Shown here: in pieces, positions 3,729 through 23,153 of the stretch
How positions within the stretch are numbered: the stretch's first letter is position 1
Layout of the letters: every line of letters starts with the position of its first letter
Assembly (NCBI GenBank): GCA_963815095.1
Contig: CAWFFH010000003.1
Span: 512,001-576,000 of the forward strand
Length of the DNA stretch: 64,000 bases
Direction: 5' to 3'
From: Candidatus Bathyarchaeota archaeon
GTDB lineage: Archaea; Thermoproteota; Bathyarchaeia; Bathyarchaeales; Bathycorpusculaceae
Program-made: the position numbers and the translations under genes
The notes under the pieces: generated by a model
What the model was told of the DNA's origin: nothing
Database searches by the model: none
The model's input: only the letters and a program-made list of their open reading frames with translations

Positions 3729-3770
3729 AAAAAATTTTGGTTAATTTGCTCTCCTGCTAATGAAACGCTG

Positions 3771-3810
3771 TGTCCTATCAGGTAGTACACCCTGTCCTAG
3801 ACTATAGACG
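3771..3810 (+). promoter_or_regulatory. Operator box A array upstream of 3856
   Basis: TGTCCTA-tcagg-TAGTACA-ccc-TGTCCTA-gact-ATAG followed by TTAATA. Confidence 0.6.
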
Positions 3811-3855
3811 TTAATACTAATTATCAGCATCTAAAGCGCAAAGAGAGGTGATAAT

Positions 3856-4825: not shown

Positions 4826-4900
4826 AAACCCATTACCAACTACTTTTTTCTCTTTTTCCAGCATTTTTATTCTTCTTGATAGGAGGGCAGTCCGGCAATC

Positions 4901-4936
4901 TGTACTGAGTTTAGTACACAGTGTCCTAGAGCGTAG
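4901..4936 (+). promoter_or_regulatory. Operator box A array upstream of 4987
   Basis: TGTACTG-agtt-TAGTACA-cag-TGTCCTA-gagc-GTAG. Confidence 0.6.
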
Positions 4937-4986
4937 AAATAACTAACTCTTGTTTATTAAGACAAGATAGAATAGGGCGTGAAAAA

Positions 4987-6816
4987 ATGAAAAAAAAGAT
5001 TTCTATTATTTGCCTAATTCTTATCGGCCTATTGCTGTCAACTTTTCTTTTTATAAGACCAGCAGCCGCGGAAGAAATAGGCTACCAAAACATTTCGGTG
5101 CATGATGCTAAACAAATGATAAAACATACACCAGACATATTGATTCTGGACGTTAGAAACCAAAGTGAATACAATCTGGGTCACTTATATGACTCAATTC
5201 TGATACCGCTATTTATCCTAGAGAGCAATGCTACTAGTAAAAATCAGCTTGCAAACGATACGATAAATATAAATGGAGTTACTTTGCCTGTTATTAATCA
5301 GCAAAATGAAATTCTTGACCTCCAAAAACACATCAATGATCCAATTATAGTCTATTGTGCAGCTGGAGCAAGAAGTGCGCCCGCATGTCAAATTCTGGTA
5401 AACCTTGGTTTTACCCACGTTTACAACATGGAAGGCGGCATAATCAGTTGGATACAAGCGGGGTATGTTATCTACACTAGTCAGCACACAGTTACAGTTA
5501 GTGCCAAAAATGACCACAAACTCTCGGTAAATATCGAGCCATCTCTTCTGTATCAGGACAGTTGTAGTATTTGTCAAAGCATCGCAGCAGCAGGAGACAA
5601 CTCCGTAAACTTAGCCCCAAACGGCACAACTATAAATGAACAAAATAATGGCAATCAGACTATTTATACGGTAACAAATGATGTTAACGATACACAACAA
5701 ATATACACAGTTGATGAAACCACTTTATGGAGCCAAAATCAATCTACTAGCGAGTACAATAAGACAATGAGCCTAATATCTTTGAACATTACCGGAGATG
5801 GTCAATCCATTCAAATAATGCATCTTTACGACAGTATCAAATCCCAAAACTATAACCTTTCAATACTGACAATTCTGATACCATTGGATTCACAAACATA
5901 CAACGTTTCTTCAACTGTCATTGATTTTGCACCGAGCGACCAGACTGGAATTTCATCTCTTGAGCAAGTTGCTTTCAACACATCAGTTACGTTATCACAA
6001 CTGTATACGGGTTTAAGTAAAGTCACCGATGACTTAGGAAAAATTTATCAGAAAAGCGCAGATGCTAATTTAACGAAATTTGCAGATCGATATTATACAA
6101 TTGTCGATGCATTGAATTCGTTATCGAAAACAGTAGAAAAACAACTGCCCACTTATAATTTAAGGATTTTAAACAGTACCGCTATGATACGAGATGATAG
6201 CTGGCAATGTCTAGTATGCCAAATCGCTTTTAACGCCGCTATTGGGATTGGATGCGCTATAATATGCGCTTGCAGTGCAGGAGAAGGATGTGTCCTCTGC
6301 TGGCAAATTTGGAATCAGCGTGCACTTTGGAGTCTCGGAGTATACTACGTTTGCCATAATGTTATCAATTGCGATGGAACTACTGCAACCTATTATTATG
6401 TATCAAGCATCAACTCATATAGCACATATAGCACACACGATCCATATTCGGCATCAGTAAACAATCCTGGCAATCTAGTGGGATCATCACCCAATGGTCA
6501 GTACGCAACTCTCTATGCGGGAAATTATGGAGATCAAGCAATGATTATTGGGAACATGAATGTTGGCGGCGAGCATGGTGACATATCGGTTTACTGCTAT
6601 AGCGGATCAGGCTATTACAGCAACCTATATGTCTACGTATCTTACGACGGCAATACTTGGTATGAAATCAATTCGCCTATAACGGTTTCTTCAACATCGC
6701 CAAGTTGGATTGATTTCGGCTATACTAATACGTGTTTCAATTACATTGCAGTCGTTGGTTATGATACCGGAAACAGCGTATTATTGAACATAGATGCAAT
6801 ACGTTTGACACCCTAA
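4987..6816 (+). CDS. Secreted rhodanese-domain protein with a Cys-rich halocin C8-like segment and a C-terminal beta-sandwich
   Basis: Signal peptide; ILDVR..EY..GHL, VYCAAGARS, YNMEGGI..W rhodanese motifs; CLVC...C..IC.C....CVLC...VC....C cluster. Confidence 0.75.
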   Translation: MKKKISIICLILIGLLLSTFLFIRPAAAEEIGYQNISVHDAKQMIKHTPDILILDVRNQSEYNLGHLYDSILIPLFILESNATSKNQLANDTININGVTLPVINQQNEILDLQKHINDPIIVYCAAGARSAPACQILVNLGFTHVYNMEGGIISWIQAGYVIYTSQHTVTVSAKNDHKLSVNIEPSLLYQDSCSICQSIAAAGDNSVNLAPNGTTINEQNNGNQTIYTVTNDVNDTQQIYTVDETTLWSQNQSTSEYNKTMSLISLNITGDGQSIQIMHLYDSIKSQNYNLSILTILIPLDSQTYNVSSTVIDFAPSDQTGISSLEQVAFNTSVTLSQLYTGLSKVTDDLGKIYQKSADANLTKFADRYYTIVDALNSLSKTVEKQLPTYNLRILNSTAMIRDDSWQCLVCQIAFNAAIGIGCAIICACSAGEGCVLCWQIWNQRALWSLGVYYVCHNVINCDGTTATYYYVSSINSYSTYSTHDPYSASVNNPGNLVGSSPNGQYATLYAGNYGDQAMIIGNMNVGGEHGDISVYCYSGSGYYSNLYVYVSYDGNTWYEINSPITVSSTSPSWIDFGYTNTCFNYIAVVGYDTGNSVLLNIDAIRLTP

Positions 6817-6849
6817 GCCATTCTCATCTTTTCTTTTTTTTAAAAAAAA

Positions 6850-7012
6850 CCATATGTCCATAAGTAACATACAAGGCTTTTCCCTGTTGTGCGAGGTTCT
6901 TTACCCCCCTCAATCGGCAAAGCTTTTTCCATACCGAAAGATAGCTTCCTTACCGTTTTCCCCTCCTAAAAGAAGTTAACCACAAGTTTGTATGCTGGTT
7001 ATGGACATATGG
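6850..7012. mobile_element. MITE (163 bp) with 25-bp terminal inverted repeats
   Basis: CCATATGTCCATAAgtaaCATACAA / TTGTATGctggTTATGGACATATGG (terminal 14 bp perfect), flanked on both sides by AAAAAAAA (candidate 8-bp TSD). Confidence 0.8.
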
Positions 7013-7194
7013 AAAAAAAAGCACAGAAGCCTTTTAGTTAAGAATTTTTGCACTAAATAAAATATATTGTGACTGTTCTAAGAATTGATTTGACTAATCC
7101 AAAGGATTATAAGGTAAAATTAGAAACAATCGATCTGATGTATAGTTACTTTGAAAACCAGCCAAATTTGCAATCGAGAAATTTTCACTTTTAT

Positions 7195-7944
7195 TTACAG
7201 GTCGGGATTATAATTTTGAGTTCTGAAATGTCTTTTTTTACCAAAGTTGTATGATGCAATTGCTCCTACAGTTGGAGCTATTAAAAGTGAGAAGATAAGA
7301 TACCCGTCGCTCCAAAAAAATGCGTAAAGCGGGTCACCTGGTTCAAACTGTTTTCCAAGTAGCCTCGAAATGCCTACAAAAGCAAAGCCTCCTGCGATAA
7401 ATGCGATGGTTATACCTAAGAAGACTCCAATAGCTATGTATACCATTTTAGCTATTACGAGCTGCGCGTTTTTCGAGAGCACATCTCTTAATATGTGCTG
7501 GATCATGTAGCAAAATCCCATGATAAGTATTAGCGAGACTAAATTTTCATACAAATTAGACGAGTTAATGTAACCTGCTGAGTATGCTGCAAAATAAATA
7601 ACAAAAAAAGAGATAAAGGATACCATTGCTCCCAGCCAGAAACGTCGCCACCATTTAGGTTTCAGCCCAAACTGTTGTCTATTAGCTTCGGGGAAATCAG
7701 TTAGCAATCGTGATGCCAACATGCCTTTTTCAGTAAGTGCATAATTTCCGTCTTCTCTTTTCACAACTAACTCGTTAAGTATTTTAAGATGATAGTTCAT
7801 TTTTCCAGTGCTATCTATTGCAAGACCATTCATTAATTCTGTATAGCTTAAGCTTACTTTTTCATGCAGTAAGAGTAACATTTTGCTTCTGGTTTCATCT
7901 TTTAGAATTTTATGTAGCGAAGCAATTCCGGAACTCATGAGCAA
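7195..7944 (-). CDS. ArsR-like wHTH regulator with C-terminal TM helices
   Basis: LHKILKDETRSKMLLLL...LSYTELM...STGKMNYHLKIL..LV.K...Y.LTEKG followed by about 4 TM. Confidence 0.85.
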   Translation of the reverse strand: MLMSSGIASLHKILKDETRSKMLLLLHEKVSLSYTELMNGLAIDSTGKMNYHLKILNELVVKREDGNYALTEKGMLASRLLTDFPEANRQQFGLKPKWWRRFWLGAMVSFISFFVIYFAAYSAGYINSSNLYENLVSLILIMGFCYMIQHILRDVLSKNAQLVIAKMVYIAIGVFLGITIAFIAGGFAFVGISRLLGKQFEPGDPLYAFFWSDGYLIFSLLIAPTVGAIASYNFGKKRHFRTQNYNPDL

Positions 7945-7972
7945 TATATAGTGTGCTAAAGCATTTTAGGCT

Positions 7973-7996
7973 TTTTGACAAAATATTTAGTCAAAA
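7973..7996. promoter_or_regulatory. Operator TTTTGAC-N10-GTCAAAA
   Basis: Perfect 7-bp IR in the divergent promoter 7944/8043; second copy TTGAC-N10-GTCAA at 8972-8991. Confidence 0.65.
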
Positions 7997-8042
7997 CACC
8001 TTAAATCTCTTAGCCCTCAAATAGACAATTGGAGATGTTTAC

Positions 8043-8924
8043 ATGTTTAGACAAGAAAATACGAGTTCATCCCATCCTATTTTTAACCTAAGCCAACCCA
8101 AAGAGAAAACGATTGGCCGGAAGCATCACAAAAAATTGTACACAATAGCCGGAGGATTAGCGGTCTTGGTCATAATTGCAGTCACGGCTCTGTTAATTCC
8201 CCAAGGATCTAGTTCACCAGTACAACTAAGCTTACAGTATACGGTAGGCGACCACATGGTTTATGACATCTCAAGCACTGTTACTGGCCAGCAGACAGGT
8301 ATTCCTCTGTCATCCCCCACGGTTTATAACTCAACAATATCTTTAGACGTCTTAAGCTTCGACGGGGAAAACTATGTCTTAAACGAAACTCTAACAACAA
8401 CGATAATAAATCATCCGTTACCGCCAATAACCCTTAATGTGAGCAAAAACAACTATTATGATAACTTCATGGCGCCCGGCGGACCAGCTATCTTTTACAA
8501 TATCAACAACAATCCAACATTGGTATCCTACTTAGCAAAATCACAGGTTAACATTGGCGATGTCTGGCAGATGCCGGTAAACACAGGCAACGCCAGCTTG
8601 GGATTAACAGGTGAAATAACAATGAAGTTCAGCGGATTCCAAGACCTCACAGTGCCAGCAGGTACATACAAAACATTCAAAATAGACACATCAACGGATA
8701 ACCTGACAATGCACTATGACCCAGCCTACTTGCAAAGCATCCACTTGGCATTCAGCGGCAACTATTCCTTGCGACTAAGCGGCACCACCTATCTAGAACA
8801 AAACACATGCCGATTAATCCAATCCGACCTAACACAATACGGAACTATGACACAACAAAGCGCTGGTAACAACGGCGTCACTACCATAACATCTACAATC
8901 TGTACAGAGAAAACGCTAACATGA
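8043..8924 (+). CDS. Membrane-anchored extracellular beta-rich protein
   Basis: N-terminal TM anchor; Thr/Asn-rich; LTVPAGTYKTFKI motif. Confidence 0.75.
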   Translation: MFRQENTSSSHPIFNLSQPKEKTIGRKHHKKLYTIAGGLAVLVIIAVTALLIPQGSSSPVQLSLQYTVGDHMVYDISSTVTGQQTGIPLSSPTVYNSTISLDVLSFDGENYVLNETLTTTIINHPLPPITLNVSKNNYYDNFMAPGGPAIFYNINNNPTLVSYLAKSQVNIGDVWQMPVNTGNASLGLTGEITMKFSGFQDLTVPAGTYKTFKIDTSTDNLTMHYDPAYLQSIHLAFSGNYSLRLSGTTYLEQNTCRLIQSDLTQYGTMTQQSAGNNGVTTITSTICTEKTLT

Positions 8925-9027
8925 GATACATAACCTATCCTTCCTTTTCAGTAATTCTCGCTAAATTGCTGTTGACGAGATTTTTAGTCAAAAAAAATTA
9001 AATGCATTGAGAGCGTATCTTAGCTTA

Positions 9028-9190
9028 ATGACTTCAACCCGTGAATCACTACATAAAATTCTCAAAGATGAGGCGTGAAGAAAAATCGTTCTTGTACTCA
9101 ACGAGAAAGGTAGCTTTAGGCTACACCGACTTGATGGATAGTTTAGACGTTCGTCACTACTGGCACACTAAATTACCACTTGAAGTTTTC
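9028..9190 (+). pseudogene. Decayed paralog of the ArsR-like wHTH-TM regulator
   Basis: MTSTRESLHKILKDEA*RKIVLVLNEKGS / LGYTDLMDSL / TGTLNYHLK, with a stop and frameshifts; matches the N-terminus of 7195..7944. Confidence 0.75.
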
Positions 9191-9220
9191 GCATGAGTCG
9201 CAAATTATACAAACCTCTTT

Positions 9221-10543
9221 GTGCTACAGTCAGGCCTTTTAAAGGATAATACTTCTGCCGTCAACGAAATAGGCGATTATGCGGTATCAAAAGGATTACA
9301 CTTTGCGGCTTACTTTGACGCTTCAGGTCACGTCCAAAATGCAATGTGGATAGGAACTGCCAAGCAACAATGGGGAGACATGTTCGTGGGCGTCTATTTG
9401 GGCGATGAACCTGGAGGCAAAATGCTTGATGGCTCCGCTACTTTCACTCTCCAAGGAATAACAGTGAATAAATCGAATGATGGCATCGTAAGTTACGATG
9501 ACGGCAATGGGTGTTTAACAGCATTTTTTCCAGACGGCAAAATTACAGTACAGAAAAGCAATGATGGCTTTTCGTCAGAGCTTGACCCTAACAATTCTTC
9601 TATAACGATATCTAACACGCTAAGTAACACCAACTTGACCACTTATGAGCCAAACGGCTCAATAACAGTAAGGGAAACAATCACAAGTACAACAAATAAA
9701 GTATACACAGGCGGTTTACCTTATGGCCACTATGATGCAGGGGACTCTTATCAAGTACTGAGAAATAATTTCTATACAATGGAAAATGGCTCAGACCGTA
9801 TTGCTCAAGAAGAAACTTATCAGCAAGTAAAGAGCACAAACCCAATACCTAACGGCGATACCGCAGCAAATCTCTTTATAGCCAAAACCAAAGGACCCAT
9901 AGATAACTTGAGAAATCAATATAAAATAAGCAAAGGGGATTTTCCAATTTTTACGTCTGATTATGGTCTTTACTGGTGGGATTACAAGAGCGGATACGAC
10001 GTGGTTCTTGCGCAGTTAGGTTGGAACAATTCGGTTGCCCAAGAAATCGCCTTAGTGCGCGGCGCTGCAAATCTGCAGGGCAAAAGCTGGGGAACTATCT
10101 TGACATGGAAATACACCCAAGCCCCATATCTTGCGGATGGAAACGAAATTTTTAACCAAATGAAAACCTCCTACGAAAACGGAGCCCAATACGTCATACT
10201 ATTCAACTATGCAGATGGCATGTCAGGACCATACGGAACCCTACAAGAGGAACATTTCCAGGCATTAGAACGCTTTTGGAATGAAGTAGTCCACAACCCC
10301 ACTGTAATCCATGGTGGCGTTAAAGCTCAAGCAGCGCTGGTTTTGCCAGAAAATTACGGATGGGGCATGCGAAACCCAAACGATACTATTTGGGGCATAT
10401 GGAATGCAAACGGTACTTCACAGCAAATCTGGAACCAGGTACAAAGCAAGCTTACCCAATATGGCTCAAAATTGGATATAGTCTATGATGACCCAGCATA
10501 TCCTATCACAGGAAAATATGGCGAAACATACTATTGGAAATAA
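9221..10543 (+). CDS. N-terminally truncated paralog of 28427..30031 (secreted, possible glycoside-hydrolase-like barrel)
   Basis: Shares DEPGG.MLD, FTSDYGLYW.DY.SGY, ALVRGAA..Q.KSWG, YGWGMR...D.IWGIW; lacks the TM anchor of its paralog. Confidence 0.75.
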   Translation: MLQSGLLKDNTSAVNEIGDYAVSKGLHFAAYFDASGHVQNAMWIGTAKQQWGDMFVGVYLGDEPGGKMLDGSATFTLQGITVNKSNDGIVSYDDGNGCLTAFFPDGKITVQKSNDGFSSELDPNNSSITISNTLSNTNLTTYEPNGSITVRETITSTTNKVYTGGLPYGHYDAGDSYQVLRNNFYTMENGSDRIAQEETYQQVKSTNPIPNGDTAANLFIAKTKGPIDNLRNQYKISKGDFPIFTSDYGLYWWDYKSGYDVVLAQLGWNNSVAQEIALVRGAANLQGKSWGTILTWKYTQAPYLADGNEIFNQMKTSYENGAQYVILFNYADGMSGPYGTLQEEHFQALERFWNEVVHNPTVIHGGVKAQAALVLPENYGWGMRNPNDTIWGIWNANGTSQQIWNQVQSKLTQYGSKLDIVYDDPAYPITGKYGETYYWK

Positions 10544-10938
10544 AGAATAAATCCAATAACCTCACCAAAGAACATTCTATTCAGAAATAACTCAAAATCC
10601 GTTCATCCATCGGTTTGTCCTATGTTTAGTAGAATAGTCGTCGCTAACATAACCTACGAATTGCCCACCTTTAGCGAACCATAAAGTCCTTGAAATCAAT
10701 ATGCTCTATGCCATTTATGCGTTTTAGCCTTGTTTGTTTTGTAGGTTTTTGCGGTATAACAAATTTACGTCACCTAGTTTTCTTTGATTAGTGTGGCAAA
10801 CTTTATCCTGATTTTGCGGTGTACAGGCTACCGCAAGAATGTGTCCTTTATCTATAGTTTGAATCAATAATGACTTAGCCCCTTAACCATGCCCTAGATT
10901 AAACAATATGCAAAGCAAAAAATGGCTAAACCTTAGCC

Positions 10939-11500
10939 TCAGAGGCTTTGCGTATTCGTCGTTGCTAGAGTTGATTTCGGTATTGGCATTGATTGAGAGT
11001 TCGGCGTTGACAATACGGGGATGAAAACGAGTGTACCAAGGCTTGAGTTGTTTTTGGAATCGTAGATAGACTGGCTTATTACTACTGTATCTGTTGTTCC
11101 CCACCAATTATTTGAGGCATTAATGTAGGTAGCTTTAGAAGAAGCTTCAAGTTTTATGCTCATGTTGATATTTCCGTAAATATTATTATCCATTAGAACA
11201 GATTGGTTTGAGAAGGCACTAACATCTAATCCTACCGAGTTCTCGGTTATAGTGTTCCCCCTAATTATTATTGGAAATGGACCCCAAGTCCCCAGGCAAT
11301 ACTTGTTAAGGCCCCAACACCCATTTATTTGCTCCCTCAATAGCTGGAATAGGATGGATAGGTTTAGCTATAACAATAATTACCTCAACTGTAATCAGCC
11401 TGTTTCTAATTGACTTTCTTATTAAATTCGCTGGAAAACAAAAAATTAAGTACCTGACTGCCACGCTTGGAATAATCGCAATAGCCAGCGGACTGCTATA
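10939..11500 (-). pseudogene. Fragments of a right-handed beta-helix (NosD-like) surface protein and a small membrane ORF
   Basis: GNTITEN..G, NNIYGN, INASNNWWGTTD...I.QSIYD motifs; no proper N-terminus. Confidence 0.55.
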
Positions 11501-11773
11501 CTTAGTTCTCGGACCTTGAGAAAGAAAGCATAAAAGGTTGATGGCACGCCTTTTGGCCGCGCCATGATTAAGGGTTGAACGCTTATTTTTTTCGAGAAGG
11601 GGTTTAAAGCGTTTGGGCAGACCCTTAACCGTTTGAATATTAGTAGAGATAGGATAAATAATTTTTCCCAAATCAGGTGGCTTATTAGAGATTTGCTTGC
11701 GTTTGTCATAATGGTTGCTACGCACAAGTTGTTAATACCTAAACTCTATCTTAACAGTTGCTTGGGTTAAGTT

Positions 11774-12067
11774 ATGAGGCGCTCCAAACTAGAAATGTAC
11801 GTTGACATTCTCAAGGTGATAGCACAAAAAGGACCGCTAAAGTTGACGCATGTTATGTATAAGTCAAATGTTAACTGCAGCGTTTTAAAGGAATATTTGG
11901 ATTTTCTAATCAAACAAGGACTAATTGAGGAAAGAACCGTTGGAAAAAGCAGAGTGGTTTATGCAAATACTGCTCGCGGAACAGCAGTTCTTAAAGGCTT
12001 CAGAGAACTGAACAAAGCGCTCCCCATAAAAGAAGAAGACCACAAAATCCCGCCAGAGCTATACTAA
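11774..12067 (+). CDS. Archaeal winged-helix transcription regulator (HTH_45-like)
   Basis: MRRSKLEMYVDILKV...LTHVMYKSNVN...LKEYLDFLIKQGLIEE. Confidence 0.9.
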   Translation: MRRSKLEMYVDILKVIAQKGPLKLTHVMYKSNVNCSVLKEYLDFLIKQGLIEERTVGKSRVVYANTARGTAVLKGFRELNKALPIKEEDHKIPPELY

Positions 12068-12542
12068 AGAAATCAGGTCAATTTTCACCTATGCTCTCAC
12101 TATGCAACTAAAAGACTATCCAGACAGTGCCACGCAAACTAAAGGCCACTTTCGATTGCCTTATCTTATCAAGTCCTGACGCCTCAAAGAAAGGGCAATC
12201 TTAGCATATTCCTCTAGAAAATTACCGGAATTGATGGATCAAAGAGAAGAGAAACAATTGTTAGTAAAATGTCAGACATCTGGCCCCTTTCCCGAACTTA
12301 CACATCGACGCTTAGCAAAAGTTTACCCAATCCTGAGAGGTGATCATATCGAATCATGACGGCATGTGCTGGGAATTTTTATGATCACCTACTGAAGAAT
12401 CAGATAGCATGTTCGGACCACTAATGGTCTGAGATCTTATCTCTGATATAACGAAATAAGACTATTTTCTTAAATTTTCATCACAGTTTGAAGCTGCCAA
12501 TTTGTCCCTTGCACTCTTTTCATAGTCGAGCTTTTCGATAAG

Positions 12543-12866
12543 CTATCTTTTGCGGGGATAGTCTGGTTTCGAATGACCCAATTTCTTCACCCATATTACT
12601 TCATTCTCAATTATCCAATAGTGTGATTGACACGGAAAACTCCAATTTCCAATAGATGGATCTAAAGTCACCGTTTCTCCATTCCATGTCAAACTCCAGT
12701 CTTTTGGTTTAATTGGTGTCACTACGATTTCGCCACAACCGCAAGGGCACCTATGGGTTGCCGTTGCGTAAAGTACGGAGATGTAGAGAATACCCTCCTC
12801 AACCTTTTCAGGAATATAGCGCACAAACTTAGGCGTGATCCGTTTTCGTTTCAATTGGCAAGTCAT
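12543..12866 (-). CDS. DUF6527-family protein (putative Ubl-processing peptidase, BubB-like)
   Basis: H.CPCGCG..VVTP.....W.L......TL.PSIGNWS.PC.SHYWI signature; overlaps the ThiF gene. Confidence 0.85.
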   Translation of the reverse strand: MTCQLKRKRITPKFVRYIPEKVEEGILYISVLYATATHRCPCGCGEIVVTPIKPKDWSLTWNGETVTLDPSIGNWSFPCQSHYWIIENEVIWVKKLGHSKPDYPRKR

Positions 12867-14022
12867 CGTTAATCAGCTCATTTGTGGGAATACTATAGAC
12901 CGTATGGTGCTCGTGTTCCAAATCTGCGTAAAATCCGCAGAGCTTCTTCCACTTAATGACGGCAAGAGCCGCATTTAACGCATTCATCTCCACAATCTGA
13001 ATATTACGAGAATAAACCTCGTCTTCTCCGTTAATGAAGTTGATTCTTCTCGCAACGTGTTCATGAAAGGATGGTGTGCAAGCAGTCACTCGAACTGCGC
13101 CACCTATCGCTTCATTCTGAACTAGACCCATTCCGACATCAATAAATGAAATATTTTTTTCTACAAGGTACTCGACAATAATCTTCTTTGCTTCTGGATT
13201 ATCAAGGCAAAGAAATACGAAGTCCATAGTCTCTAATTCTGAGACGTTCGTATCGTCAATGAATTGGAAATGAGGAATTATTTTCTTCCGCATTCGTGAG
13301 TAATTTTCAGCAAACCACTCCACCTTAGTTAGCTGCTTTCCTAAGTCTTCGCATGACGGTGCCCCTGGACTGCGGAAGGCATTGTGCTGAAGGAACCTGT
13401 CACCATCGAATAGATGAATCTCATTGACCAATGTCTTTGCGACAAAATCAAGGATGTACGCGCCAGTTCCCCCCAGCCCAACAATCGCGATACGTGCTCT
13501 GAGTTTCTCGTTTATCGCTGTAGTGCCTGCATGGCTGGAAGCGTTATCCACGTAGCAAAAGACGGAATCCCCATCGATTGTCCGAATAACCGGGTGGGTT
13601 TGGGCGGTAGCGGTAGGGTCAATAACATGTGCTTCCGCCTCAAGAATCTTGATGTACCTGCTCATCTTTTCGTGATAATTGGCATAGCCTCCATCGGGTT
13701 TATGAGAGAACTGACAGGTAGTTTCAAGTCCTTCGCTGATTTTCAGCCGAAAATTCGGATCATTGACAAGTTTTACCATCTGTGAACCTTTGGAGTCACA
13801 TGGGTATTCTCCGACCCAATAGACGACATGATTGGATGGTTTGATAGTCTTGTCGCCAGCCAAATCTAGCGGGGATACCAACGTTCCATATGCAACTTGT
13901 TTCTTCGAGTTAACATATGGTACGTGTGCGACTAGAAGATGCCCGCTTAATACACTTACTTCGTAGCCTTCGTCTTGAAGTAGCTTTAGGTCATCATTAC
14001 GACTTATCAGTTGGAGTGACAT
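12829..14022 (-). CDS. E2-like (DUF6791)-ThiF/E1 fusion (BubCD-like)
   Basis: N-terminal LISRN.DL..L.DEGYEV...VPYVN...FSHKP; C-terminal IVGLGGTG, FDGD.F.QHNAFRSPGA, IDVGMG, YSRNIQI.EMNALNA. Confidence 0.9.
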   Translation of the reverse strand: MSLQLISRNDDLKLLQDEGYEVSVLSGHLLVAHVPYVNSKKQVAYGTLVSPLDLAGDKTIKPSNHVVYWVGEYPCDSKGSQMVKLVNDPNFRLKISEGLETTCQFSHKPDGGYANYHEKMSRYIKILEAEAHVIDPTATAQTHPVIRTIDGDSVFCYVDNASSHAGTTAINEKLRARIAIVGLGGTGAYILDFVAKTLVNEIHLFDGDRFLQHNAFRSPGAPSCEDLGKQLTKVEWFAENYSRMRKKIIPHFQFIDDTNVSELETMDFVFLCLDNPEAKKIIVEYLVEKNISFIDVGMGLVQNEAIGGAVRVTACTPSFHEHVARRINFINGEDEVYSRNIQIVEMNALNAALAVIKWKKLCGFYADLEHEHHTVYSIPTNELINDDLPIETKTDHA

Positions 14023-14245
14023 CGAATGCCATACCGCTCTTGACCTTTACGGTTTGTCCCTCTGCCAGAGTTCCCTTAGGGTTCTCCTTGGGACCCTTGG
14101 TATAGTCAACTGTGAATATCTCGTTTGGTTTTGGTGGGCGAGGGAATCCCAAATTGACAACCTGCACATAATTGATCGTTTCCTCGTCCCAAGGCTTTCG
14201 ACTACCATTAACAAAAATTTCGAATTTTTTATGTTCTTCAGGCAT
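13997..14245 (-). CDS. Ubiquitin-like (multi-ubiquitin-domain family) protein, BubA-like
   Basis: I.VNG......I.Y.QVV.L.F......FTV.Y.KG......GTL..G.TVKVK.GM.FDV..TDKS; start 14245 after GGAG; overlaps the E2-E1 gene. Confidence 0.85.
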   Translation of the reverse strand: MPEEHKKFEIFVNGSRKPWDEETINYVQVVNLGFPRPPKPNEIFTVDYTKGPKENPKGTLAEGQTVKVKSGMAFDVTPTDKS

Positions 14246-14672
14246 TGTACATTCTCCACTTGTTATAGGTTGTTGACTCATTGGTTAATGACAGAAATAA
14301 AGTTTATTGACTTATTCCCGTTACTTTTTAGGTATCACATTTTATTTGATTATCTTTTTTTTTATAATAAGCCTCTGGCAGCATCTCCAAGGGGTCTGAA
14401 TCTATCTGAAAGTGACAACATTACTTAGGGTCGATTGCCGTCTTTTTCCTTTTAAAGCATTAAGCAGGTTTTGGCGAAGAAATTTTTGATGACATTATAA
14501 TCGCATACATTTTTTACCTCAAATATCGAACAATCATAAGCCTAATCAGGTGCGCGATACCAAACGAAGTTTAATTCGATTTGTGGAGCGTTGATTTCGA
14601 TATTTGGCCGAGTAATAGCACAGTTTGTTTCAGTTTTTGGGCCTTCAACCAAAAAAGTCTTGAGAGCTTTTT

Positions 14673-14894
14673 CTAAATTTTTTTTACGCATTCTTTGCAG
14701 TATAACGACAACGCAAATACGTCTTCATTCATCCAGTTCTTAATAATTTTTCCATTGCCACCTACTAAATATGCTTCCTCAAACGAAAATTTCTTGCGAC
14801 AGTTTGCGCATGAAAAAACTAAACGCTGTTTCGAGTCACATTTTAAAGAACGCTGATATTTGATCTTCTTAGGGGTAATAACGATTTTCACCAA
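14673..14894 (-). CDS. Small zinc-finger protein
   Basis: CANC...YCKEC. Confidence 0.55.
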   Translation of the reverse strand: MVKIVITPKKIKYQRSLKCDSKQRLVFSCANCRKKFSFEEAYLVGGNGKIIKNWMNEDVFALSLYCKECVKKI

Positions 14895-15086
14895 AATAAA
14901 TCAACTCGAATGAGTTTGGCGCCATAACTCCTGAGCATTTCTGATTCTTGATTGATTCGGAAAGATATTTCGCTTTCCTTAAAAACCGAATGCCTCATGC
15001 AAACACATCTCATAGACCCTGCCTTAAAATAATCCTTTTGCGAAATCTTCCGCGTCGGAAACGAATATCATTCCCTAATTTCATTA

Positions 15087-15344
15087 TCAGTTACCTGTCC
15101 CGTTAGGAACAAATTCTAAAAAGCTTATAATTAAGTCAAATTGTCCAGCCCTTGCTCGAGTACGTGCTAAGGAAGTTATGGATCCTCCAGCTTTTCTTTC
15201 TACGTATAAGTCTGAACAAGTCCATCCTTCGCTCTGAATAAACCGTATGCACACTTGAAGTTGACTTGAAATAATTGATTTTTGATTGTTTGTCGAGAAA
15301 GCGCAAATGTAAATTGCTGCTCTATTCTGAATGGCAATAGCCAT
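15087..15344 (-). CDS. Degenerate serine-recombinase (resolvase N-terminal)-like small protein
   Basis: MAIAIQNRAAIYICAFSTNNQ...SQLQVC..F...GW....Y.E...G...ARAGQFDLII; lies directly downstream of the wHTH. Confidence 0.6.
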   Translation of the reverse strand: MAIAIQNRAAIYICAFSTNNQKSIISSQLQVCIRFIQSEGWTCSDLYVERKAGGSITSLARTRARAGQFDLIISFLEFVPNGTGN

Positions 15345-15379
15345 ACCACTTTCACATTTGCTAGGGTTCCGAGAGTCAT

Positions 15380-15592
15380 CTACTTTTCGGCAACATACAT
15401 TTTTGCTCTTCCCACTATCCTCGAAATCTTCACTTTTCCACACTTTTCTAATCCAAATACATATTTTGAGATAGTGTTCCGATGCACGCCGGTTTTTGCG
15501 GCTATTTCTTCTATTGAGAAGTCTTTTGGATACTCTTTCCGAAGGAATTCCAAGACTATTTTTTCGATATCTTGGTTCATTTTGTTGTGCAC
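15380..15592 (-). CDS. Small wHTH transcription regulator
   Basis: VLEFLRKEYPKDFSIEEIAAKTGVHRNTISKYV..LEK.GKV....VGRAKMY. Confidence 0.85.
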   Translation of the reverse strand: MHNKMNQDIEKIVLEFLRKEYPKDFSIEEIAAKTGVHRNTISKYVFGLEKCGKVKISRIVGRAKMYVAEK

Positions 15593-15659
15593 TGGTGAAC
15601 ATCGTTATCAAACAACGCTTATATAGTTGGTTGTTTATTAATGTTGTGCATTAACGCAC

Positions 15660-16094
15660 AGCGTTAAAGGTGACGAAAAATGGAGAAAAAACATATTGAG
15701 AACATGGCAAACAAGAAGACCGCCCAGATAATGAAAAAAGAAAATTATCAGCAAACAACTATGATATTAAATAAAAATGCTCAATTGGCAGCTATTTACG
15801 TTTCCGACGAAGCAAAAAAAGAAGTTAACATTTCGAAACAAGTAGAGGCATGTCAGAAGTTTCTTAGCGAAAAAGGGTTCAAATTTTCAGGGGATCTTTT
15901 TCTAAAAAAAGAAGGGACTGACCATATTGATGAACTTGTAAGGGCTCGAGCACGGTCGCGAAGATTTGATTACATGGTAAGTTACCTTTTATGCCCAGGC
16001 AAATCACCGGGATTTTTTATTGGAATGATCGTTTGTTGGAATGCCCAAAACTTCCTAATAAAGCCTATTCAAGCGTTAAGGTGACGAAAAAATG
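15660..16094 (+). repeat. Imperfect direct repeat of about 24 bp flanking 15680..16084
   Basis: AGCGTTAAAGGTGACGAAAAATGG (15660-15683) vs AGCGTTAAGGTGACGAAAAAATGG (16072-16095). Confidence 0.7.
15680..16084 (+). CDS. Second degenerate resolvase-like domain protein
   Basis: AAIYVSDE...ISKQVEACQKF..EKGF.....F...G....ARSRRFDYMV. Confidence 0.6.
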   Translation: MEKKHIENMANKKTAQIMKKENYQQTTMILNKNAQLAAIYVSDEAKKEVNISKQVEACQKFLSEKGFKFSGDLFLKKEGTDHIDELVRARARSRRFDYMVSYLLCPGKSPGFFIGMIVCWNAQNFLIKPIQALR

Positions 16095-16167
16095 GTTTGG
16101 AAAGAAACTAGTTTTTCTCTATTTAAAAGAAAACTGCAAAAATAAGTCATCAAAGGAGTAACTTATT

Positions 16168-17313
16168 ATGAATACAGTTTTAGCAAAATGTCCAATTTGT
16201 GGAAGCGAAACCTCCAACTTCAAGATAAACGAGGACAACTTGAGATTTCTCGAGCAACGTTTCCATGATAATAATCTCGACCAAGCAATTGTTCTTGCCA
16301 GCATCGCCTGGAACAACTTTCCGGGGTTGAGGCTTAACGCGGACAGCAGAACATTGATTAATGGTCTATTGAAAAGCGTTCAAGAACAAGTAGCCAACGC
16401 TCTAACGCCCCTAAACATGGTCACTAAGATGGTTTATCCGCTAAGCGAGAAATTAGAGGCGCTAATTGAAACCCTTCCTGAGGGGGTCAAAAAAGAGTTT
16501 TGCGAATTAAAAGTGCAACTAACCGAAAAATTAGAGTTAATACATGAAGCAGCCACCAGCGCTACTGAACCTGTCCAAAGAGATCTAAAAGAGCTAAACG
16601 ACACCATCAATCAACTGATCAACAAACCAGTTAGCAAGGGTCTTGTAAACGAAGAGACACTGAAGCTTAGTTGGCAAGAGGTTTTTGTTAAAGACCAGAC
16701 ATTTAAAAAAGGAGGACCCGGGCAGCCAGATCTTGTGATTATCCCCAGCATTCAACTCAATGGCAAATGTTTCGGTCAGAAAATTATAGTGGAACGAAAA
16801 GCGGGTAGACAAAAATATTGTGGGACACATTTGGCGGAAACCATTCAACACACGAAGGCTGAGGGTTCGACCTACGGAATACTAGTATACGACGCGCCTT
16901 CCAACCTTCTCGAGGTTCAGAAACCGTTTTACGTGTCTATGTCTCAAGGAGTTACCATCGCCATAACTGATATTGAATCTGGCGGTTGGAAAACCGCGCG
17001 ACAAATTTTTGAGGTGTTCCAATCGGTTTTGCCCAATGATGCTGCAGATAACGCAAGCAAAATAGACATTGGAAAGCTGCAAAGGGCCATAGACGAAATC
17101 GCTACCGTCAACCAACAAATTGAAACACTCCGAAAATGTAACAATTCTGCGCTTTCTAACTGCGAAAAGTCTAGGACCCTGATAAACAGATTGGAAGAAC
17201 TAATAGCGGCCTATCAGGAAAAACTTAGAGAACTGCTTTGCCCAAGCACTCCTCCTCCTCAGATCTGGTCATCAGAAAAACTAATTCAGGAAAATAAAAA
17301 CTCGCTAGTATAA
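16168..17313 (+). CDS. Coiled-coil + PD-(D/E)XK nuclease-like protein (RmuC/DUF2130-like)
   Basis: N-terminal CPIC; heptad region; KGLVNEE, PDLVI, IIVERK motifs; C-terminal coiled coil. Confidence 0.7.
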   Translation: MNTVLAKCPICGSETSNFKINEDNLRFLEQRFHDNNLDQAIVLASIAWNNFPGLRLNADSRTLINGLLKSVQEQVANALTPLNMVTKMVYPLSEKLEALIETLPEGVKKEFCELKVQLTEKLELIHEAATSATEPVQRDLKELNDTINQLINKPVSKGLVNEETLKLSWQEVFVKDQTFKKGGPGQPDLVIIPSIQLNGKCFGQKIIVERKAGRQKYCGTHLAETIQHTKAEGSTYGILVYDAPSNLLEVQKPFYVSMSQGVTIAITDIESGGWKTARQIFEVFQSVLPNDAADNASKIDIGKLQRAIDEIATVNQQIETLRKCNNSALSNCEKSRTLINRLEELIAAYQEKLRELLCPSTPPPQIWSSEKLIQENKNSLV

Positions 17314-17370
17314 GATTAAGTATACAGTTCTTTCTTGCCCCTTTTTGAAAAAACTTTTTGAGGAATTTTT

Positions 17371-18558
17371 GTGGACAAAGCTTTCAAAGCAACAAAGAAC
17401 AGCCCCATCAGAAAGATAGGCGAAGATCCAAAACCAACTTCGCTAGGGTGCTCTGTAAGTGAAGCTTACCCACAAAGAAGGGGAAAGAGAGAGTTCAGCG
17501 AACGAGAAATGCGGGGGCTCGCGATTTTAGCAAAGGGCAGCATGATTAAGAGAAATGATGAAAACACGTACTTAGTACGATCATCAAACATGGAAAGATG
17601 GTACAAAGTATATTGGAATGGGAAACGGTGGGTCTGCGAATGTAAAGACCACGAAAAAAGACTTCAATCGTGTAAGCATGTATATGCTGTGCTTTTTCTA
17701 AACAGATTGCCCTACATTCTAATGGCGAATTTTCAATCCGGAGAGATCAGATGTCCAAAATGCAATTCAAACCGAATAATAAGAAAAGGACTAAGCCATC
17801 ACAAAGAATTTGCAGATCAGAGATATATGTGCAAGGAATGCAAGCATAAATTCGGTGATAAGGGTGAGAGTAAAGGTCTGAAAGGAAATCCTCTAGCAGT
17901 AATCGCGGTGGCAGACCTTTATTTCAAAGGATTAAGCCTCCGTGCGATAGAACACCACATGAACAGTATCTACTCATTACATGTTTCGTATCCAACGATA
18001 TTCCGATGGATAAGGCGCATCATAAAGAACATGAAAGCACTGGAGAAAGAACACAGTTTGCATGTTGGGAAAACGTGGCATGTGGACGAAACCCTGATAA
18101 AAATAAGAGGCAAGCTCGCTTATCTGTGGAATGCTTTGGATGCGGAAACAAAGATATTGCTGGCAAGCGAGGTAACTTTTGGAAGAACAAGCGAAGACGC
18201 TGAAATGGTAATACGCGAGGCATTAAGAAAAGCTCAGTCGGGACTTGGAGAAATTGAAATTGTGACAGACGGCTTGAAAAGTTACAATATCGCCTTATCA
18301 AAGGATTATGATTGCAAAATAAAGCATCTATCGAAGCCTAAATTTACCGACCCAACTAACAACAACTTAGTTGAACGAGTAAACGGAACTCTTAAAACGA
18401 GAATAAAAAACTTCCGAAGACTAGACAATCTGTCTTCTTCAGCCCAACTTCTCGATGGACTTCGATTATACTATAACTCCAAGCGTCCTCACTCAGCTCT
18501 CGGAGGGAAAACACCAATCGAAGCCAGCTCAGAGTTAAACAAAAGAGTCCAAAGTTGA
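17371..18558 (+). mobile_element. SWIM + Zn-ribbon + HTH + IS6-like DDE transposase
   Basis: CECKD...CKH (SWIM), CPKC...QRYMCKEC, WHVDET, VTDGL, NNLVERVN, YYNSKRPHSALGGKTP. Confidence 0.85.
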
Positions 18559-19356
18559 ATCTTTGGGCTTGGATCTTTTGCTTCGTTTTTTTGGGCTAAT
18601 ATTTTTCTTGTAATCAATTGCAAGTTTTATTAGAGGGAGCCAACTGTGTTTTCCATCGATTGATTTTTTGTTTAGCGCAACTTCTGCTGGTGTCATATCG
18701 CAAAGGCTTGGACTAGGGTTGACAAAATTATAATCAATTACTACACCCTTTATTATTAGCGGTGATTTTTCTTTACTGTGCAAGCTTTTCATTGCGTTAA
18801 ATCTAGCCCTAAATACGCCGTTATGCCCTTCAATCGCTTGGTTTTGTCCCATGTCACCTTCTCTTTTATTTACTGTGAGTTTTGTTTTGGGTCCACACGC
18901 ATCTTTAACCGCCTTATCATATACTGGCAGGCCATCGCATCTCACTTCAACAGGGGATTTTTTGGCCATTGCCACGGCATTTTTAAAAGCTATTTTTACT
19001 GTTTCAATTGTAACTGGATAGTCTATATTTATGCCAAGATCAAAACCAGTCTTTAGATCTCTAACCACCATTAATGCTAACTCATTCTTTCTAAGCTTAA
19101 AGAACATTTCATCCGTTTCCCATATGTCCCCGAACTGAAACTCAAAACCGTATTCACCTTTTTCAATATAATATGGTAGAGCTTCGTCTACTGCTCCTAC
19201 CCAGTACAATATTCGGCGGAGTATAGTTGCAGGAGAAATCGGAATTCCGTAGTGTGCCCTAAACAAGCGAGAAATCTTTCGTAGACACATTCCCGCATAA
19301 AAAAGATCAAGCAAATAAGCATACTGTTCTAAAGTCAACCGATAGCCCAATATCAA
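18535..19356 (-). mobile_element. Second HTH-DDE transposase/integrase-like gene, convergent with the first
   Basis: GMCLRKI..., WETDE, RCDGLPVY, NQAIEGHNG, YNFVNP...TPAE. Confidence 0.8.
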
Positions 19357-19559
19357 TTCCTCCCAAAAATTTTAGGTCCAATTATTGAAACAGTAACTTT
19401 CATAAAAGACAAGGACCAGCCCCTGAAACAATACCGTTGCTGGTTCTGTTTCAAATCACCAGCTTTTGCCGCTTGACTCACTACTGTTTCAAATGTGGAC
19501 TTACAATGGACTGTTTCAATGTGCTCAGTCGGATAAATTGAGCATTTCTTTTTTTTCAA
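19353..19559 (-). CDS. Small protein, possibly a degenerate InsA-like Zn-ribbon
   Basis: K.G......QRYC motif; stop/start overlaps with both neighbours. Confidence 0.4.
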   Translation of the reverse strand: MKKKKCSIYPTEHIETVHCKSTFETVVSQAAKAGDLKQNQQRYCFRGWSLSFMKVTVSIIGPKIFGRN

Positions 19560-20023
19560 AGTTTTTCGCTCGCTCCAAGTTTCGGTTCTAGATAGTCAAA
19601 AATTTTGTCGTCTTCCAGACCCCATTCACGGATGGTACTTTCGACTAGTTGCTGTATTTTCAATTTTTTACTCTCTTGCAGCATGAACGCCCAGACTTCC
19701 GAAGGTACTTTGTGAGACCACTCGATTTCCATCCAGAAAATAGCGGCCTCACCTTTATCCGGCTGGCAGTTGGTCCATTCCTCTTCGATTTCTTCAGCAG
19801 AGAAAAAAGCGGTTTTTTGCCCATGAAGAGTACGTTTTAGATTATCATAACAAATGATAAACTCACTTATGCCCGTCCAGTCTCTGAAGGCACCAGTTTC
19901 TTTAGAACCACACTTAGTAGCCAACAGTTTTCTAACTTCCACACATATGTCTGCAAACTTGTCAATGTCAGATTCTTTACCAAACAGCCAATTATCACAA
20001 CTACCCATTGTTTTACCACCCAT
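19556..20023 (-). CDS. Hypothetical acidic protein
   Basis: 155-aa ORF in an operon-like run. Confidence 0.6.
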   Translation of the reverse strand: MGGKTMGSCDNWLFGKESDIDKFADICVEVRKLLATKCGSKETGAFRDWTGISEFIICYDNLKRTLHGQKTAFFSAEEIEEEWTNCQPDKGEAAIFWMEIEWSHKVPSEVWAFMLQESKKLKIQQLVESTIREWGLEDDKIFDYLEPKLGASEKL

Positions 20024-20041
20024 AAACGATTTTACAATTTT

Positions 20042-20230
20042 TCATTTGTAACTTTGACCTCTACACAACCTAAGCCAAATCGGAACCCAAAGAAGAAATG
20101 TAGCCTTGTCAAGTGAATCATCCAAGGACAGAATCGTTTCCCTTAAGGCATTTCCAGGCGGCAAAGACTCGGAGACGAAAGTCTTTAACCTTCTAATGTT
20201 AACGTACTTGCTGCTTTGCAATTGTTGCAC
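20042..20230 (-). CDS. Small helical protein
   Basis: VNIRRLKTF....LP....LRETILS..D.L....FL.....WLRL amphipathic pattern; heads the minus-strand run. Confidence 0.55.
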   Translation of the reverse strand: MQQLQSSKYVNIRRLKTFVSESLPPGNALRETILSLDDSLDKATFLLWVPIWLRLCRGQSYK

Positions 20231-20373
20231 CGCTAATCAAACGAGGCGGTATCATGGTTGTAAGGCTTTTGAGGACGTTTGGTATCCGAGAATTGCCCAT
20301 TGGTATTTTTTCGTAGTGCAAAAAGAGTTTGTACTGAAAGCTAAGTCTGAATATTGGAGACATTTTATTAATC

Positions 20374-22005: not shown

Positions 22006-22192
22006 CATAGAAAATTCGTGCCTTAAATGAGACGCAAAAATTTCCATCCTATTTATCAATTGTTAATTGTGTGTATGTTTTGCAGATAAATGCTATTCAG
22101 GGATTTTTTACACAATTGGCGTTGAATACAGCTTAAAAGATTCTTTTGGGGTCATTAAACATTGGGTGACGAAAATGAAGCACAAAAAATGC

Positions 22193-22975: not shown

Positions 22976-23039
22976 CTCATTTCTGATATTTTGTAATTGC
23001 AGCTATCCTCATTTTTACCTTTAAGCTTTTTTGCCAGTA

Positions 23040-23056
23040 AAGTAGCGACCGCTACA
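23040..23056. promoter_or_regulatory. 17-bp palindromic site AAGTAGCGACCGCTACA, copy 1
   Basis: Identical copy at 24571-24587; both lie about 65 bp upstream of a minus-strand start. Confidence 0.7.
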
Positions 23057-23153
23057 GCATTTCCTTTTCAGGGTTCTGTCAAGTTGTCGGTTGAGAAGGG
23101 GTCGTGTAAACTTTCGGTTGATTTGCGAAGAGACAAAAAGAAAAGGTGGTGGT

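Follow-up and report, generated by a model that had tools for sequence, protein, structure and literature searches.

Among known ubiquitin-like cascades, only those encoded by Bub operons operate without catalytic cysteines, and so far these operons have been analysed in bacteria alone. The Bub systems of Citrobacter and E. coli (the operons were formerly named '6E' or 'DUF6527' operons) form protein conjugates in vitro and in E. coli by way of tyrosine and serine oxyester intermediates (PMC11601596). The catalytic serine of the Bub E2 is accompanied by an invariant lysine and an invariant histidine, and Citrobacter BubE, which has a Ser-His dyad and a four-cysteine (Cys4) site, shows weak peptidase activity that zinc stimulates (PMC11601596). 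Regulators of the CapW/BrxR or CapH+CapP type adjoin 39% of 544 bacterial Bub operons, which makes them a frequent but not a defining feature (PMC11601596). Here we describe a Bub operon in a 64,000-nucleotide stretch of DNA (hereafter the window) from Candidatus Bathyarchaeota archaeon (contig CAWFFH010000003.1, positions 512,001 to 576,000), where an original prediction, made on the piece from 12,543 to 14,245, had recognized a ubiquitin-like conjugation operon resembling the bacterial Bub type. Our analysis confirms that this locus has the complete bubA-bubBD-bubE set, which makes it a Type II Bub (6E.2) operon by the definition of PMC11601596.

The operon and the two domains of its central protein are laid out as follows:

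13997..14245, minus strand: bubA, a ubiquitin-like protein (Ubl) with one beta-grasp Multi_ubiq domain (open reading frame (ORF), PF14452 match, alignment with PDB 9cd2)
12829..14022, minus strand: bubBD, an E2-E1 fusion of 397 aa (Pfam, NCBIfam, invariant residues, AlphaFold2 (AF2) model)
12543..12866, minus strand: bubE, a DUF6527 Ser-His peptidase candidate of 107 aa (PF20137 match, invariant residues)
about 13543-14022, minus strand: E2 (DUF6791) domain of BubBD, residues about 1-160, holding Ser106, Lys108 and His65
BubBD residues about 165-380, minus strand: E1 adenylation domain, holding Arg217 and the crossover-loop Tyr337

According to the ORF listing, bubA and bubBD share 26 nt, and bubBD and bubE share 38 nt. 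The gene set read by the original prediction as Ubl, E2-E1 and DUF6527 was borne out in full: hidden Markov models (HMMs) from Pfam matched Multi_ubiq, DUF6791, ThiF and DUF6527, the gene order is that of Type II, and the Pfam and NCBIfam matches to the operon proteins lie far beyond chance. Pfam detected no JAB/JAMM peptidase domain in the three proteins or in the neighbouring ORFs. Bub models are absent from PADLOC (2023), which returned only weak Cap2-type matches on the adenylation domain. We compared the locus with the best 80 of at least 573 relatives in species-representative genomes (600 candidate stretches scored). The order A-BD-E recurs in 80 of these 80 loci, with the BD-E pair present in all of them and BubA in 79 (L026 ends at a contig end). 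The 26-nt overlap of bubA with bubBD is the same in nearly all related loci and suggests that translation of the two genes is coupled.

The bubA ORF (13997..14281) encodes 94 aa with the C-terminus ...VTPTDKS, and matches Multi_ubiq (PF14452) with E 9.3e-16. Position 14245 is an internal ATG, corresponding to Met13 of this ORF. Since GGAG stands 8 nt upstream of this codon and the homologues in L012 and L015 start at the aligned position, 14245 is probably the true start of bubA, which would give a BubA of 82 aa; BubA residue numbers nevertheless follow the 94-aa ORF. The protein aligns end to end with the C-terminal domain of BubA from E. coli ZDHYS365 (PDB 9cd2), and both terminate in TDKS. 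That this Ubl lacks a C-terminal di-glycine had been pointed out before. The observation stands, but not as an oddity, since the terminal serine is invariant in 36 of 36 BubA sequences and 9cd2 has the same end; judged by these alignments, a glycine-less ...TDKS terminus is the norm of the family.

BubBD matches DUF6791 at residues 10-159 (E 7.8e-54) and ThiF at residues 174-298 (E 1.2e-14) in Pfam, and scores 540.6 bits with NCBIfam NF004805 (PRK06153.1-4; cut-off 352). The same protein stays below the curated cut-offs for UbaA (13.6 vs 450 bits), ThiF (34.2 vs 159) and MoeB (19.3 vs 266), and the PADLOC matches to E1-E2 proteins of the Cap2 type span residues about 170-290 only (best E 2.5e-7). 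The reading of this protein as an E2-E1 fusion without CxxC motifs proved correct, as none occurs anywhere in the 397-aa translation. The candidate catalytic residues named from the sequence, namely the Ser of FSHKP and the Tyr of EVYSRNIQ in BubBD and the Ser/His of the DUF6527 protein, correspond to Ser106, Tyr337 and Ser71/His82, and all are invariant in our alignments. Among 61 BubBD sequences, His65, Ser106, Arg217 and Tyr337 are fully conserved and Lys108 occurs in 60. The residues mutated in E. coli BubBD (S106, R219 and Y342) carry numbers near those of the window protein (PMC11601596). Position 314, the only crossover-loop position tabulated besides Tyr337, is mostly Thr and is Cys in one of the 61 sequences.

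An AF2 model of full-length BubBD, built from the 61-sequence alignment, reached a predicted local distance difference test score (pLDDT) of 88.1 and a predicted template modelling score (pTM) of 0.83. The best Foldseek matches of this model are the Citrobacter BubCD structures (E 1.4e-11, E1 domain), followed by ThiF, UBA5 and MoeB. Modelled alone, the E2 domain gave a pLDDT of 89.9; Foldseek returned nothing for this domain at E <= 0.001, with BubB at E 0.12 and probability 0.80. In a VIA all-against-all comparison, Citrobacter BubB ranked first (Z 9.5, root-mean-square deviation 3.5 Å, 120 of 128 residues aligned), ahead of UEV, E2 and RWD folds at Z 4-6 (at most 6.0). As modelled, the E2 domain has a diverged UBC fold like that of BubB. 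By sequence, the match of BubBD to Citrobacter Type I is marginal and limited to the E1 domain (E 0.0012).

BubE matches DUF6527 (PF20137) with E 3.6e-25 over model positions 2-63 of 63, and contains CPCGCG, PSIGN and SHY motifs. Cys40, Cys44, Cys79, Ser71 and His82 are invariant in 36 of 36 sequences, and Cys42 is kept in at least 90%. We presume that Cys40/42/44/79 form a zinc site and that Ser71 and His82 form the dyad; the spacing agrees with C57/C59/C61/C99, S92 and H102 of Citrobacter BubE (PMC11601596). A sequence search of the PDB with BubE found no solved relative and gave only chance-level matches, for example to arenavirus glycoproteins (E >= 0.044).

Where this BubE departs from its bacterial relatives is in its termini. 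After SHY it carries a basic tail of 24 aa, as compared with a median of 40.5 aa in the archaeal clade described below and of 67 aa in 64 bacterial BubE proteins (78 of 80 rows counted; L069 and L050 are without SHY). The last 20 residues contain a median of one Trp/Phe in the archaeal clade versus three in bacteria, and almost no member of the archaeal clade has the aromatic, hydrophobic end usual in bacterial BubE. Nor is the N-terminus of the window protein hydrophobic. A hydrophobic N- or C-terminal extension has been called conserved across BubE (PMC11601596); this extension is an accessory feature and not a catalytic one. Short tails recur, since that of L019/G034, the shortest in the clade, has only 15 aa. 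The view that the operon is intact holds for its three open frames, its catalytic residues and the complete BubE core domain; the BubE C-terminal tail is short. Past the TAG stop of bubE, at 12466-12543 (minus strand), its reading frame runs on without a further stop for 26 codons (LIEKLDYEKSARDKLAAS...). A frameshift in bubE was considered and rejected, as none of the three downstream frames encodes the helix seen in homologues.

Structure prediction of BubA together with BubE gave a complex with a score of 0.81 (best of three controls: 0.00), a mark that is reached by 58 of 80 solved complexes and by 2 of 110 mismatched pairs. At least 98% of contacts are shared between the runs, and the partner reaches a pLDDT of at least 83. 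In the predicted interface, BubA residues 87-94 lie against BubE residues 70-78 and His82, and the BubE tail is not involved. This model supports the idea that the dyad of BubE is where the C-terminal tail of BubA is bound.

On the model of the homologous systems in E. coli and Citrobacter, we propose the following mechanism. The E1 domain of a dimeric BubBD would bind BubA and use ATP to adenylate the carboxylate of its C-terminal serine with the help of Arg217. The crossover-loop Tyr337 would then attack the adenylate to give a BubA~Tyr oxyester, from which BubA would move to the E2 serine, Ser106, probably on the other protomer, where Lys108 and His65 may tune the site. From there BubA would be transferred to lysines of target proteins. 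BubE, as a zinc-stabilised Ser71/His82 peptidase, could bind the BubA tail, remove BubA from targets and so restrain the system.

Relatives of BubBD are abundant: at least 7,972 of 8,000 scored candidates match at E <= 0.001, and 501 representatives of 50%-identity clusters reach E <= 1e-30. They also occur on 128 PLSDB plasmid records, all at less than 60% identity and 96 of them conjugative or mobilizable, and on five IMG/VR contigs; a tblastn search of 50,697 phage records found none. Archaeal loci make up 14 of the best 80 and include all of the top 12, and bacterial BubBD proteins among the matches listed are at most 57% identical to the window copy. For phylogeny we computed a quick IQ-TREE tree from 80 BubBD rows, unrooted and with Shimodaira-Hasegawa-like approximate likelihood ratio test (SH-aLRT) support only, in which L018 was omitted (its ORF is cut short by the caller), L068 was trimmed, and L004 represents the same genome as L019. 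Twelve archaeal rows (11 distinct sequences) form one clade with an SH-aLRT support of 99. This archaea-only clade, to which the window copy belongs, contains Bathyarchaeia, Nitrososphaerota/Nitrosopumilus and Thermoplasmata (Thermoplasmatota), with the phyla intermixed. Two further archaeal rows, from a Methanomassiliicoccaceae member (L022) and an 'uncultured archaeon' (L032), sit among bacteria. Because a single clade of all 14 archaeal rows is rejected by the approximately unbiased (AU) test (p-AU 0.0037), Bub has, on this tree, crossed the boundary between archaea and bacteria at least twice. BubA and BubE are likewise closest within the archaeal group (59-70% identity vs 35-61% to bacterial copies), which suggests that the cassette moves as a unit.

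The original prediction of a bacterial-type operon is therefore right as to the Bub family, but not as to the nearest relatives, which are archaeal. Given the position of the window copy in an archaea-only clade, its direct donor was probably another archaeon. For Bub as such we infer a bacterial origin, and this only from the much wider bacterial diversity. Rooting with the five IMG/VR BubBD proteins (35-51% identity) was discarded, as it produced long branches and left the deep nodes unresolved (support 0-13). With these rows added the 12-row archaeal group still stays together (SH-aLRT 79), and the polarity between bacteria and archaea is not established. One of the IMG/VR contigs (L098) encodes at 5983-7182 a BubBD that is 43% identical and sister to the archaeal clade (SH-aLRT 91); its branch is very long and the placement unreliable.

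In archaeal genomes the system is rare. Of 401 genomes sampled from the class, 4 encode DUF6791, as do 4 of 401 sampled from the phylum, the genome of the window (G000) included in both, and 2 of 401 sampled around a Thermoplasmata genome, again counting the central genome. The archaeal occurrences thus amount to at most 1% of the genomes sampled. Within the genus, the full-length protein is present in G034 in one draw of 36 congeners, and in G387 and G398 in another draw. All-against-all BLAST of flanking ORFs from the 14 archaeal loci found no conserved fourth gene beside the operon; the only shared frames are shadow ORFs that overlap the Bub genes on the opposite strand. The 81 flanking ORFs of 13 archaeal loci include two phage-type integrases and two DDE transposases. 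Another tRNA-adjacent site is found in the Nitrosopumilus record L013, where 1.3 kb separate the Bub operon from a tRNA-Ser gene (2401-2485).

Comparison with congeners strongly supports the earlier view that the operon was acquired horizontally. It is part of an integrated element of about 35 kb at a tRNA-Arg gene and is absent from four congeners. The element and its recognizable features, with positions outside the window given on contig C3 of G000, are the following:

1..33915, left end at G000:C3:511067, about 933 nt left of the window, no strand: integrated element of about 34.85 kb (congener comparison, direct repeat)
33901..33977, minus strand: tRNA-Arg(CCG), integration target and right attachment site, the sole tRNA-Arg(CCG) in the genome, where synteny resumes
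32515..33825, minus strand: candidate tyrosine recombinase (integrase), 436 aa (ESM Atlas only)
17371..18558, plus strand: insertion-sequence (IS)-type DDE transposase, 395 aa (DDE_Tnp_IS240 E 3e-19, rve_3 E 3.8e-13, Pfam)
18535-19356, minus strand: DDE fragment, 273 aa (Pfam E 4.5e-5), abutting the transposase
15380..15592, minus strand: small helix-turn-helix (HTH) protein, 70 aa (HTH_11 E 9.4e-7, HTH_3 E 1.7e-5, Pfam)

Matches of four congeners (G002, G013, G029 and G007) to the window begin only at 33,901, exactly at tRNA-Arg(CCG), and run rightwards from there. On the left flank, where 20 kb left of the window were searched, G002, G013 and G029 match only up to about C3:510,644. Between the flanks all four match only short paralogous pieces. 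The distance from flank to flank is about 4.4 kb in G002, 11 kb in G013, 21 kb in G029 and 35 kb in G000, and these differences mark the site as a variable hotspot. At C3:511067-511081, 15 nt of the tRNA 3' end recur as a direct repeat (E 0.007 within 45.8 kb). This repeat lies less than 20 nt from the point where identity to the congener G387 jumps from about 80% (core) to 95-100% (element). That G387, with a core only about 80% identical, carries the element at 95-100% identity points either to an interspecies transfer of very recent date or to an artefact of binning or assembly; its contig ends at the tRNA, both G387 and G000 are metagenome-assembled genomes (MAGs), and the cross-species identity needs caution.

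The 436-aa ORF next to the tRNA has no match in Pfam, PHROG or NCBIfam. ESM Atlas relates it with a score of 0.99 (223 of 256 features) to archaeal clusters automatically named 'Tyr recombinase domain-containing protein' and 'putative site-specific integrase', and PF00589 is present in 24% of the members of the latter. We treat this naming as a lead. These clusters occur most often in Bathyarchaeota, Thermoplasmatota and Nitrososphaerota, which are also the phyla of the archaeal Bub clade, and the ORF may represent a divergent integrase family missed by current HMM libraries. A second Bathyarchaeia record (L018, 1-9191) encodes an integrase with 98.4% aa identity and shares two element blocks at 92% identity. 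Beside this integrase, at another position in the element, lies a different intact Bub operon with a BubBD that is 59% identical. The bubBD frame of L018 begins with a codon other than ATG, GTG or TTG.

Eight or nine further large ORFs of the element are without a match in Pfam, PHROG or NCBIfam. The element also encodes several HTH proteins and a peptidase A4. The small HTH gene, which lies 1.1 kb upstream on the operon strand and is not conserved next to other archaeal Bub operons, is a possible regulator of the operon. A winged-helix HTH_45 gene at 11774-12067 (plus strand) is convergent with the operon and has many DNA paralogues, 69-75% identical, across the genomes of the genus. The rhodanese domain at the N-terminus of a 609-aa protein (4987-6816, plus strand) is the sole domain of the sulfur-transfer type near the E1, and this protein is not conserved beside other Bub operons. 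The stretch at 15760-16095 is 89% identical to one in G002, suggesting repeated or mobile sequence. Within 15087-16084, two divergently placed ORFs (174 and 134 aa) without a Pfam match share a motif pattern and may be decayed copies. This pattern resembles the N-terminal domain of serine recombinases.

The host genome (G000) comprises 2.69 Mb in nine contigs and is 98.45% complete with 4.2% estimated contamination. The window lies within a 1.53 Mb contig that bears a full archaeal 16S gene (1486 bits). The concern that the contig might be chimeric was checked against this gene and against the element flanks, both of which are syntenic with congeners, and chimerism was not borne out. One public record (L011) contains 9,191 bases 100% identical to the window, and a further study yielded DNA contigs that match parts of 11337-13975 at 97-100% identity. 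Contigs from RNA libraries match the operon at 13413-13563 and 13896-14171 (X6, X7) and at 13774-13966 (X11, another study), and the contig at 13896-14171 spans the overlap between bubA and bubBD. They give a weak hint of transcription, weak because DNA can contaminate RNA libraries. The cover is limited to these three stretches, and its lack over bubE and the flanks is uninformative. In the conserved core part of the window, at 54204-54488 (plus strand), a 94-aa ORF ending in ...VVHGG fits the small archaeal modifier protein (SAMP) or ThiS/MoaD-type Ubl of the host to which the original prediction had referred.

Taken as a whole, these data are best explained by a Type II Bub operon, with a mechanism inferred by homology, that travels as cargo of the element of about 35 kb at tRNA-Arg(CCG). 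We hold this explanation to be likely. By homology the operon would carry out Ubl conjugation, and the antiviral role that the original prediction held probable is no more than a candidate; the operon might protect against archaeal viruses, respond to stress or favour the element itself. A number of observations speak against this explanation or parts of it. ATP-dependent conjugation through oxyester intermediates has been demonstrated for Citrobacter and E. coli Bub only. Ser106 and Tyr337 were equated with the E. coli residues by invariance and near-identical numbering. Cys75 of the E2 domain is kept in 59 of 61 BubBD proteins, so that sequence cannot by itself exclude a cysteine role. No Bub operon protected E. 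coli from phage (PMC11601596). PADLOC recognized no other defence gene among 10 large ORFs of the element, and the idea of a defence island was dropped with this result. The neighbouring ORFs include no CapW/BrxR or CapH+CapP regulator, only generic HTH proteins, and the neighbourhood of the operon is gene-poor, with IS elements and gene fragments. The window BubE is without the hydrophobic extension, its tail is the second shortest of the archaeal clade, and the in-frame stretch past its stop might be what decay has left of the C-terminal helix, although the similarity is too weak to call. As to expression, X6 and X7 give identical results and may be one data set, and RNA-library contigs can stem from contaminating DNA.

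Some of these observations would also fit an operon that is a decaying, non-functional passenger of the element, no longer under selection and with BubE already truncated. The tail of 24 aa as compared with the clade median of 40.5, the in-frame stretch behind the stop codon as a possible remnant, and the gene-poor flanks with IS elements and gene fragments are what such decay might leave behind. Yet none of the three frames is interrupted and no catalytic residue has been lost, the DUF6527 domain is complete (positions 2-63 of 63), the L019/G034 tail is shorter still at 15 aa, RNA-library contigs lie on bubA and bubBD, and the BubA-BubE interface is confidently predicted without the tail. We consider decay improbable. 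It is easier to imagine, though still on the unlikely side, that an active system serves the mobile element and not host defence, by tagging proteins of the host or of rival elements for maintenance, transfer or competition. The operon does travel on an integrative element, another Bub allele is found on a related element whose integrase is 98.4% identical, 96 of the 128 plasmid records with BubBD are conjugative or mobilizable, and both the missing phage protection in E. coli (PMC11601596) and the lack of another defence gene among the 10 large ORFs searched with PADLOC would be in line with such a function. On the other hand, defence systems are themselves typically carried on mobile elements, and 39% of bacterial Bub operons stand beside the defence-associated CapW/BrxR or CapH+CapP (PMC11601596).

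A sulfur-carrier or cofactor-type adenylation system of the ThiF/MoeB kind, without protein conjugation, could be suspected from the ThiF domain, from public names such as 'ThiF family adenylyltransferase' and from the rhodanese-domain protein encoded at 4987-6816 in the same element. This protein is, however, encoded on the other strand about 5.7 kb away, and other archaeal Bub operons have no conserved neighbour beyond the three genes. Together with the scores far below the ThiF, MoeB and UbaA cut-offs, the fused UBC-like E2, the dedicated peptidase, the lack of a Gly-Gly terminus and of CxxC pairs, and the protein conjugates formed by the Bub family in vitro and in E. coli (PMC11601596), this makes a sulfur-carrier function very improbable. 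Hardly more credible is bacterial contamination or a chimeric join in the MAG. The estimated contamination of 4.2% and the end of the near-identical G387 copy exactly at the tRNA, where assemblers can break or mis-join, leave some room for it, but they are opposed by the 1.53 Mb contig with its archaeal 16S gene, the synteny of both element flanks with congeners, the archaeal nearest homologues of all three proteins, the 92%-identical flanks in the Bathyarchaeia record L018, and independent DNA runs from another study with pieces at 97-100% identity. The Type II Bub operon on an integrated element remains our preferred explanation. A bolder version of it, which we regard as rather doubtful, would give archaea a lineage of their own of cysteine-free Tyr/Ser oxyester Ubl conjugation, shuttled among Bathyarchaeia, Nitrososphaerota and Thermoplasmatota by tRNA-integrating elements with a divergent tyrosine recombinase, used as an antiviral or inter-element weapon that tags foreign proteins, and regulated differently from bacterial ones through loss of the membrane-associating BubE tail.

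The family itself is known and biochemically characterised; what is new is the archaeal lineage, its carriage by archaeal integrative elements and the tail-less BubE. A full-text literature search brought up no reference to Bub operons in archaea; Table S1 of both 2024 preprints, which was outside this search, might list some. Archaea appear in the main text of PMC11601596 only for a JAMM structure, and row 6e in Table 1 of Iyer et al. 2006 names bacteria only. Public databases already hold homologous archaeal proteins as 'ThiF family adenylyltransferase'. Carried by integrative elements, one Bub lineage is now in circulation in three phyla of archaea. With a Ubl of 82 aa and a tail-less BubE of 107 aa, the window operon also offers a compact test case that could show which parts are essential. 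Because the archaeal copies look horizontally acquired, they have no bearing on the origin of eukaryotic ubiquitin.

The described system closest to the window operon is the Type II Bub operon of E. coli ZDHYS365. The two operons share a set of three genes and its order, the invariant Ser, Lys/His, Arg and Tyr of the E2-E1 protein, a BubA end in TDKS, and a BubE with Cys4 site and Ser-His dyad, and both are carried by a mobile element at a tRNA gene (PMC11601596). The window copy differs in its archaeal host and its place in an archaea-only clade. BubA of E. coli has three beta-grasp domains and, according to the part of PMC11601603 consulted, forms Ca2+-dependent filaments, whereas the window BubA has one domain. 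Compared with E. coli and other bacterial Bub systems, the window BubE is also without the hydrophobic extension, and neither CapW nor CapH/CapP was seen. The Type I operon of Citrobacter (BubAB, BubCD and BubE; 9ea4, 9ea8, 9eae and 9eav) provides the best structural match for the window E1 and E2 and shares the oxyester logic of Tyr and Ser as well as the DUF6527 peptidase. In Type I, the Ubl is fused to the E2 and a JAB domain to the E1, and BubA ends in Gly after processing (PMC11601596). In contrast, the window operon has no JAB domain, its E2 is fused to the E1, and its BubA terminus is Ser.

Type II CBASS (cyclic oligonucleotide-based antiphage signalling system) operons with Cap2 and Cap3 resemble the window locus in their E2-E1 fusion architecture. 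CBASS is without a Ubl gene, and Cap2 uses catalytic cysteines. Among the neighbouring ORFs of the window operon we found neither a CD-NTase nor a JAB Cap3 partner, and BubBD gave no full-length match to Cap2. Bil operons likewise present a cassette of Ubl, E1, E2 and peptidase at mobile or defence loci, and in contrast to Bub they have shown antiphage activity (PMC11601596). They differ by separate E1 and E2 proteins with catalytic cysteines and by a JAB deubiquitinase. With the archaeal SAMP/UbaA pathway the window operon shares Ubl conjugation in archaea. SAMPs end in Gly-Gly and depend on a stand-alone MoeB-like E1 without an E2, as opposed to the Lys-Ser end of the window BubA and a UbaA model score of only 13.6 bits (cut-off 450) for BubBD. 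The eukaryote-like archaeal E1-E2-RING systems of Caldiarchaeum and Asgard archaea use cysteine thioesters. Beside SAMPs and these eukaryote-like systems, the Bub operon would represent a third kind of Ubl conjugation in archaea.

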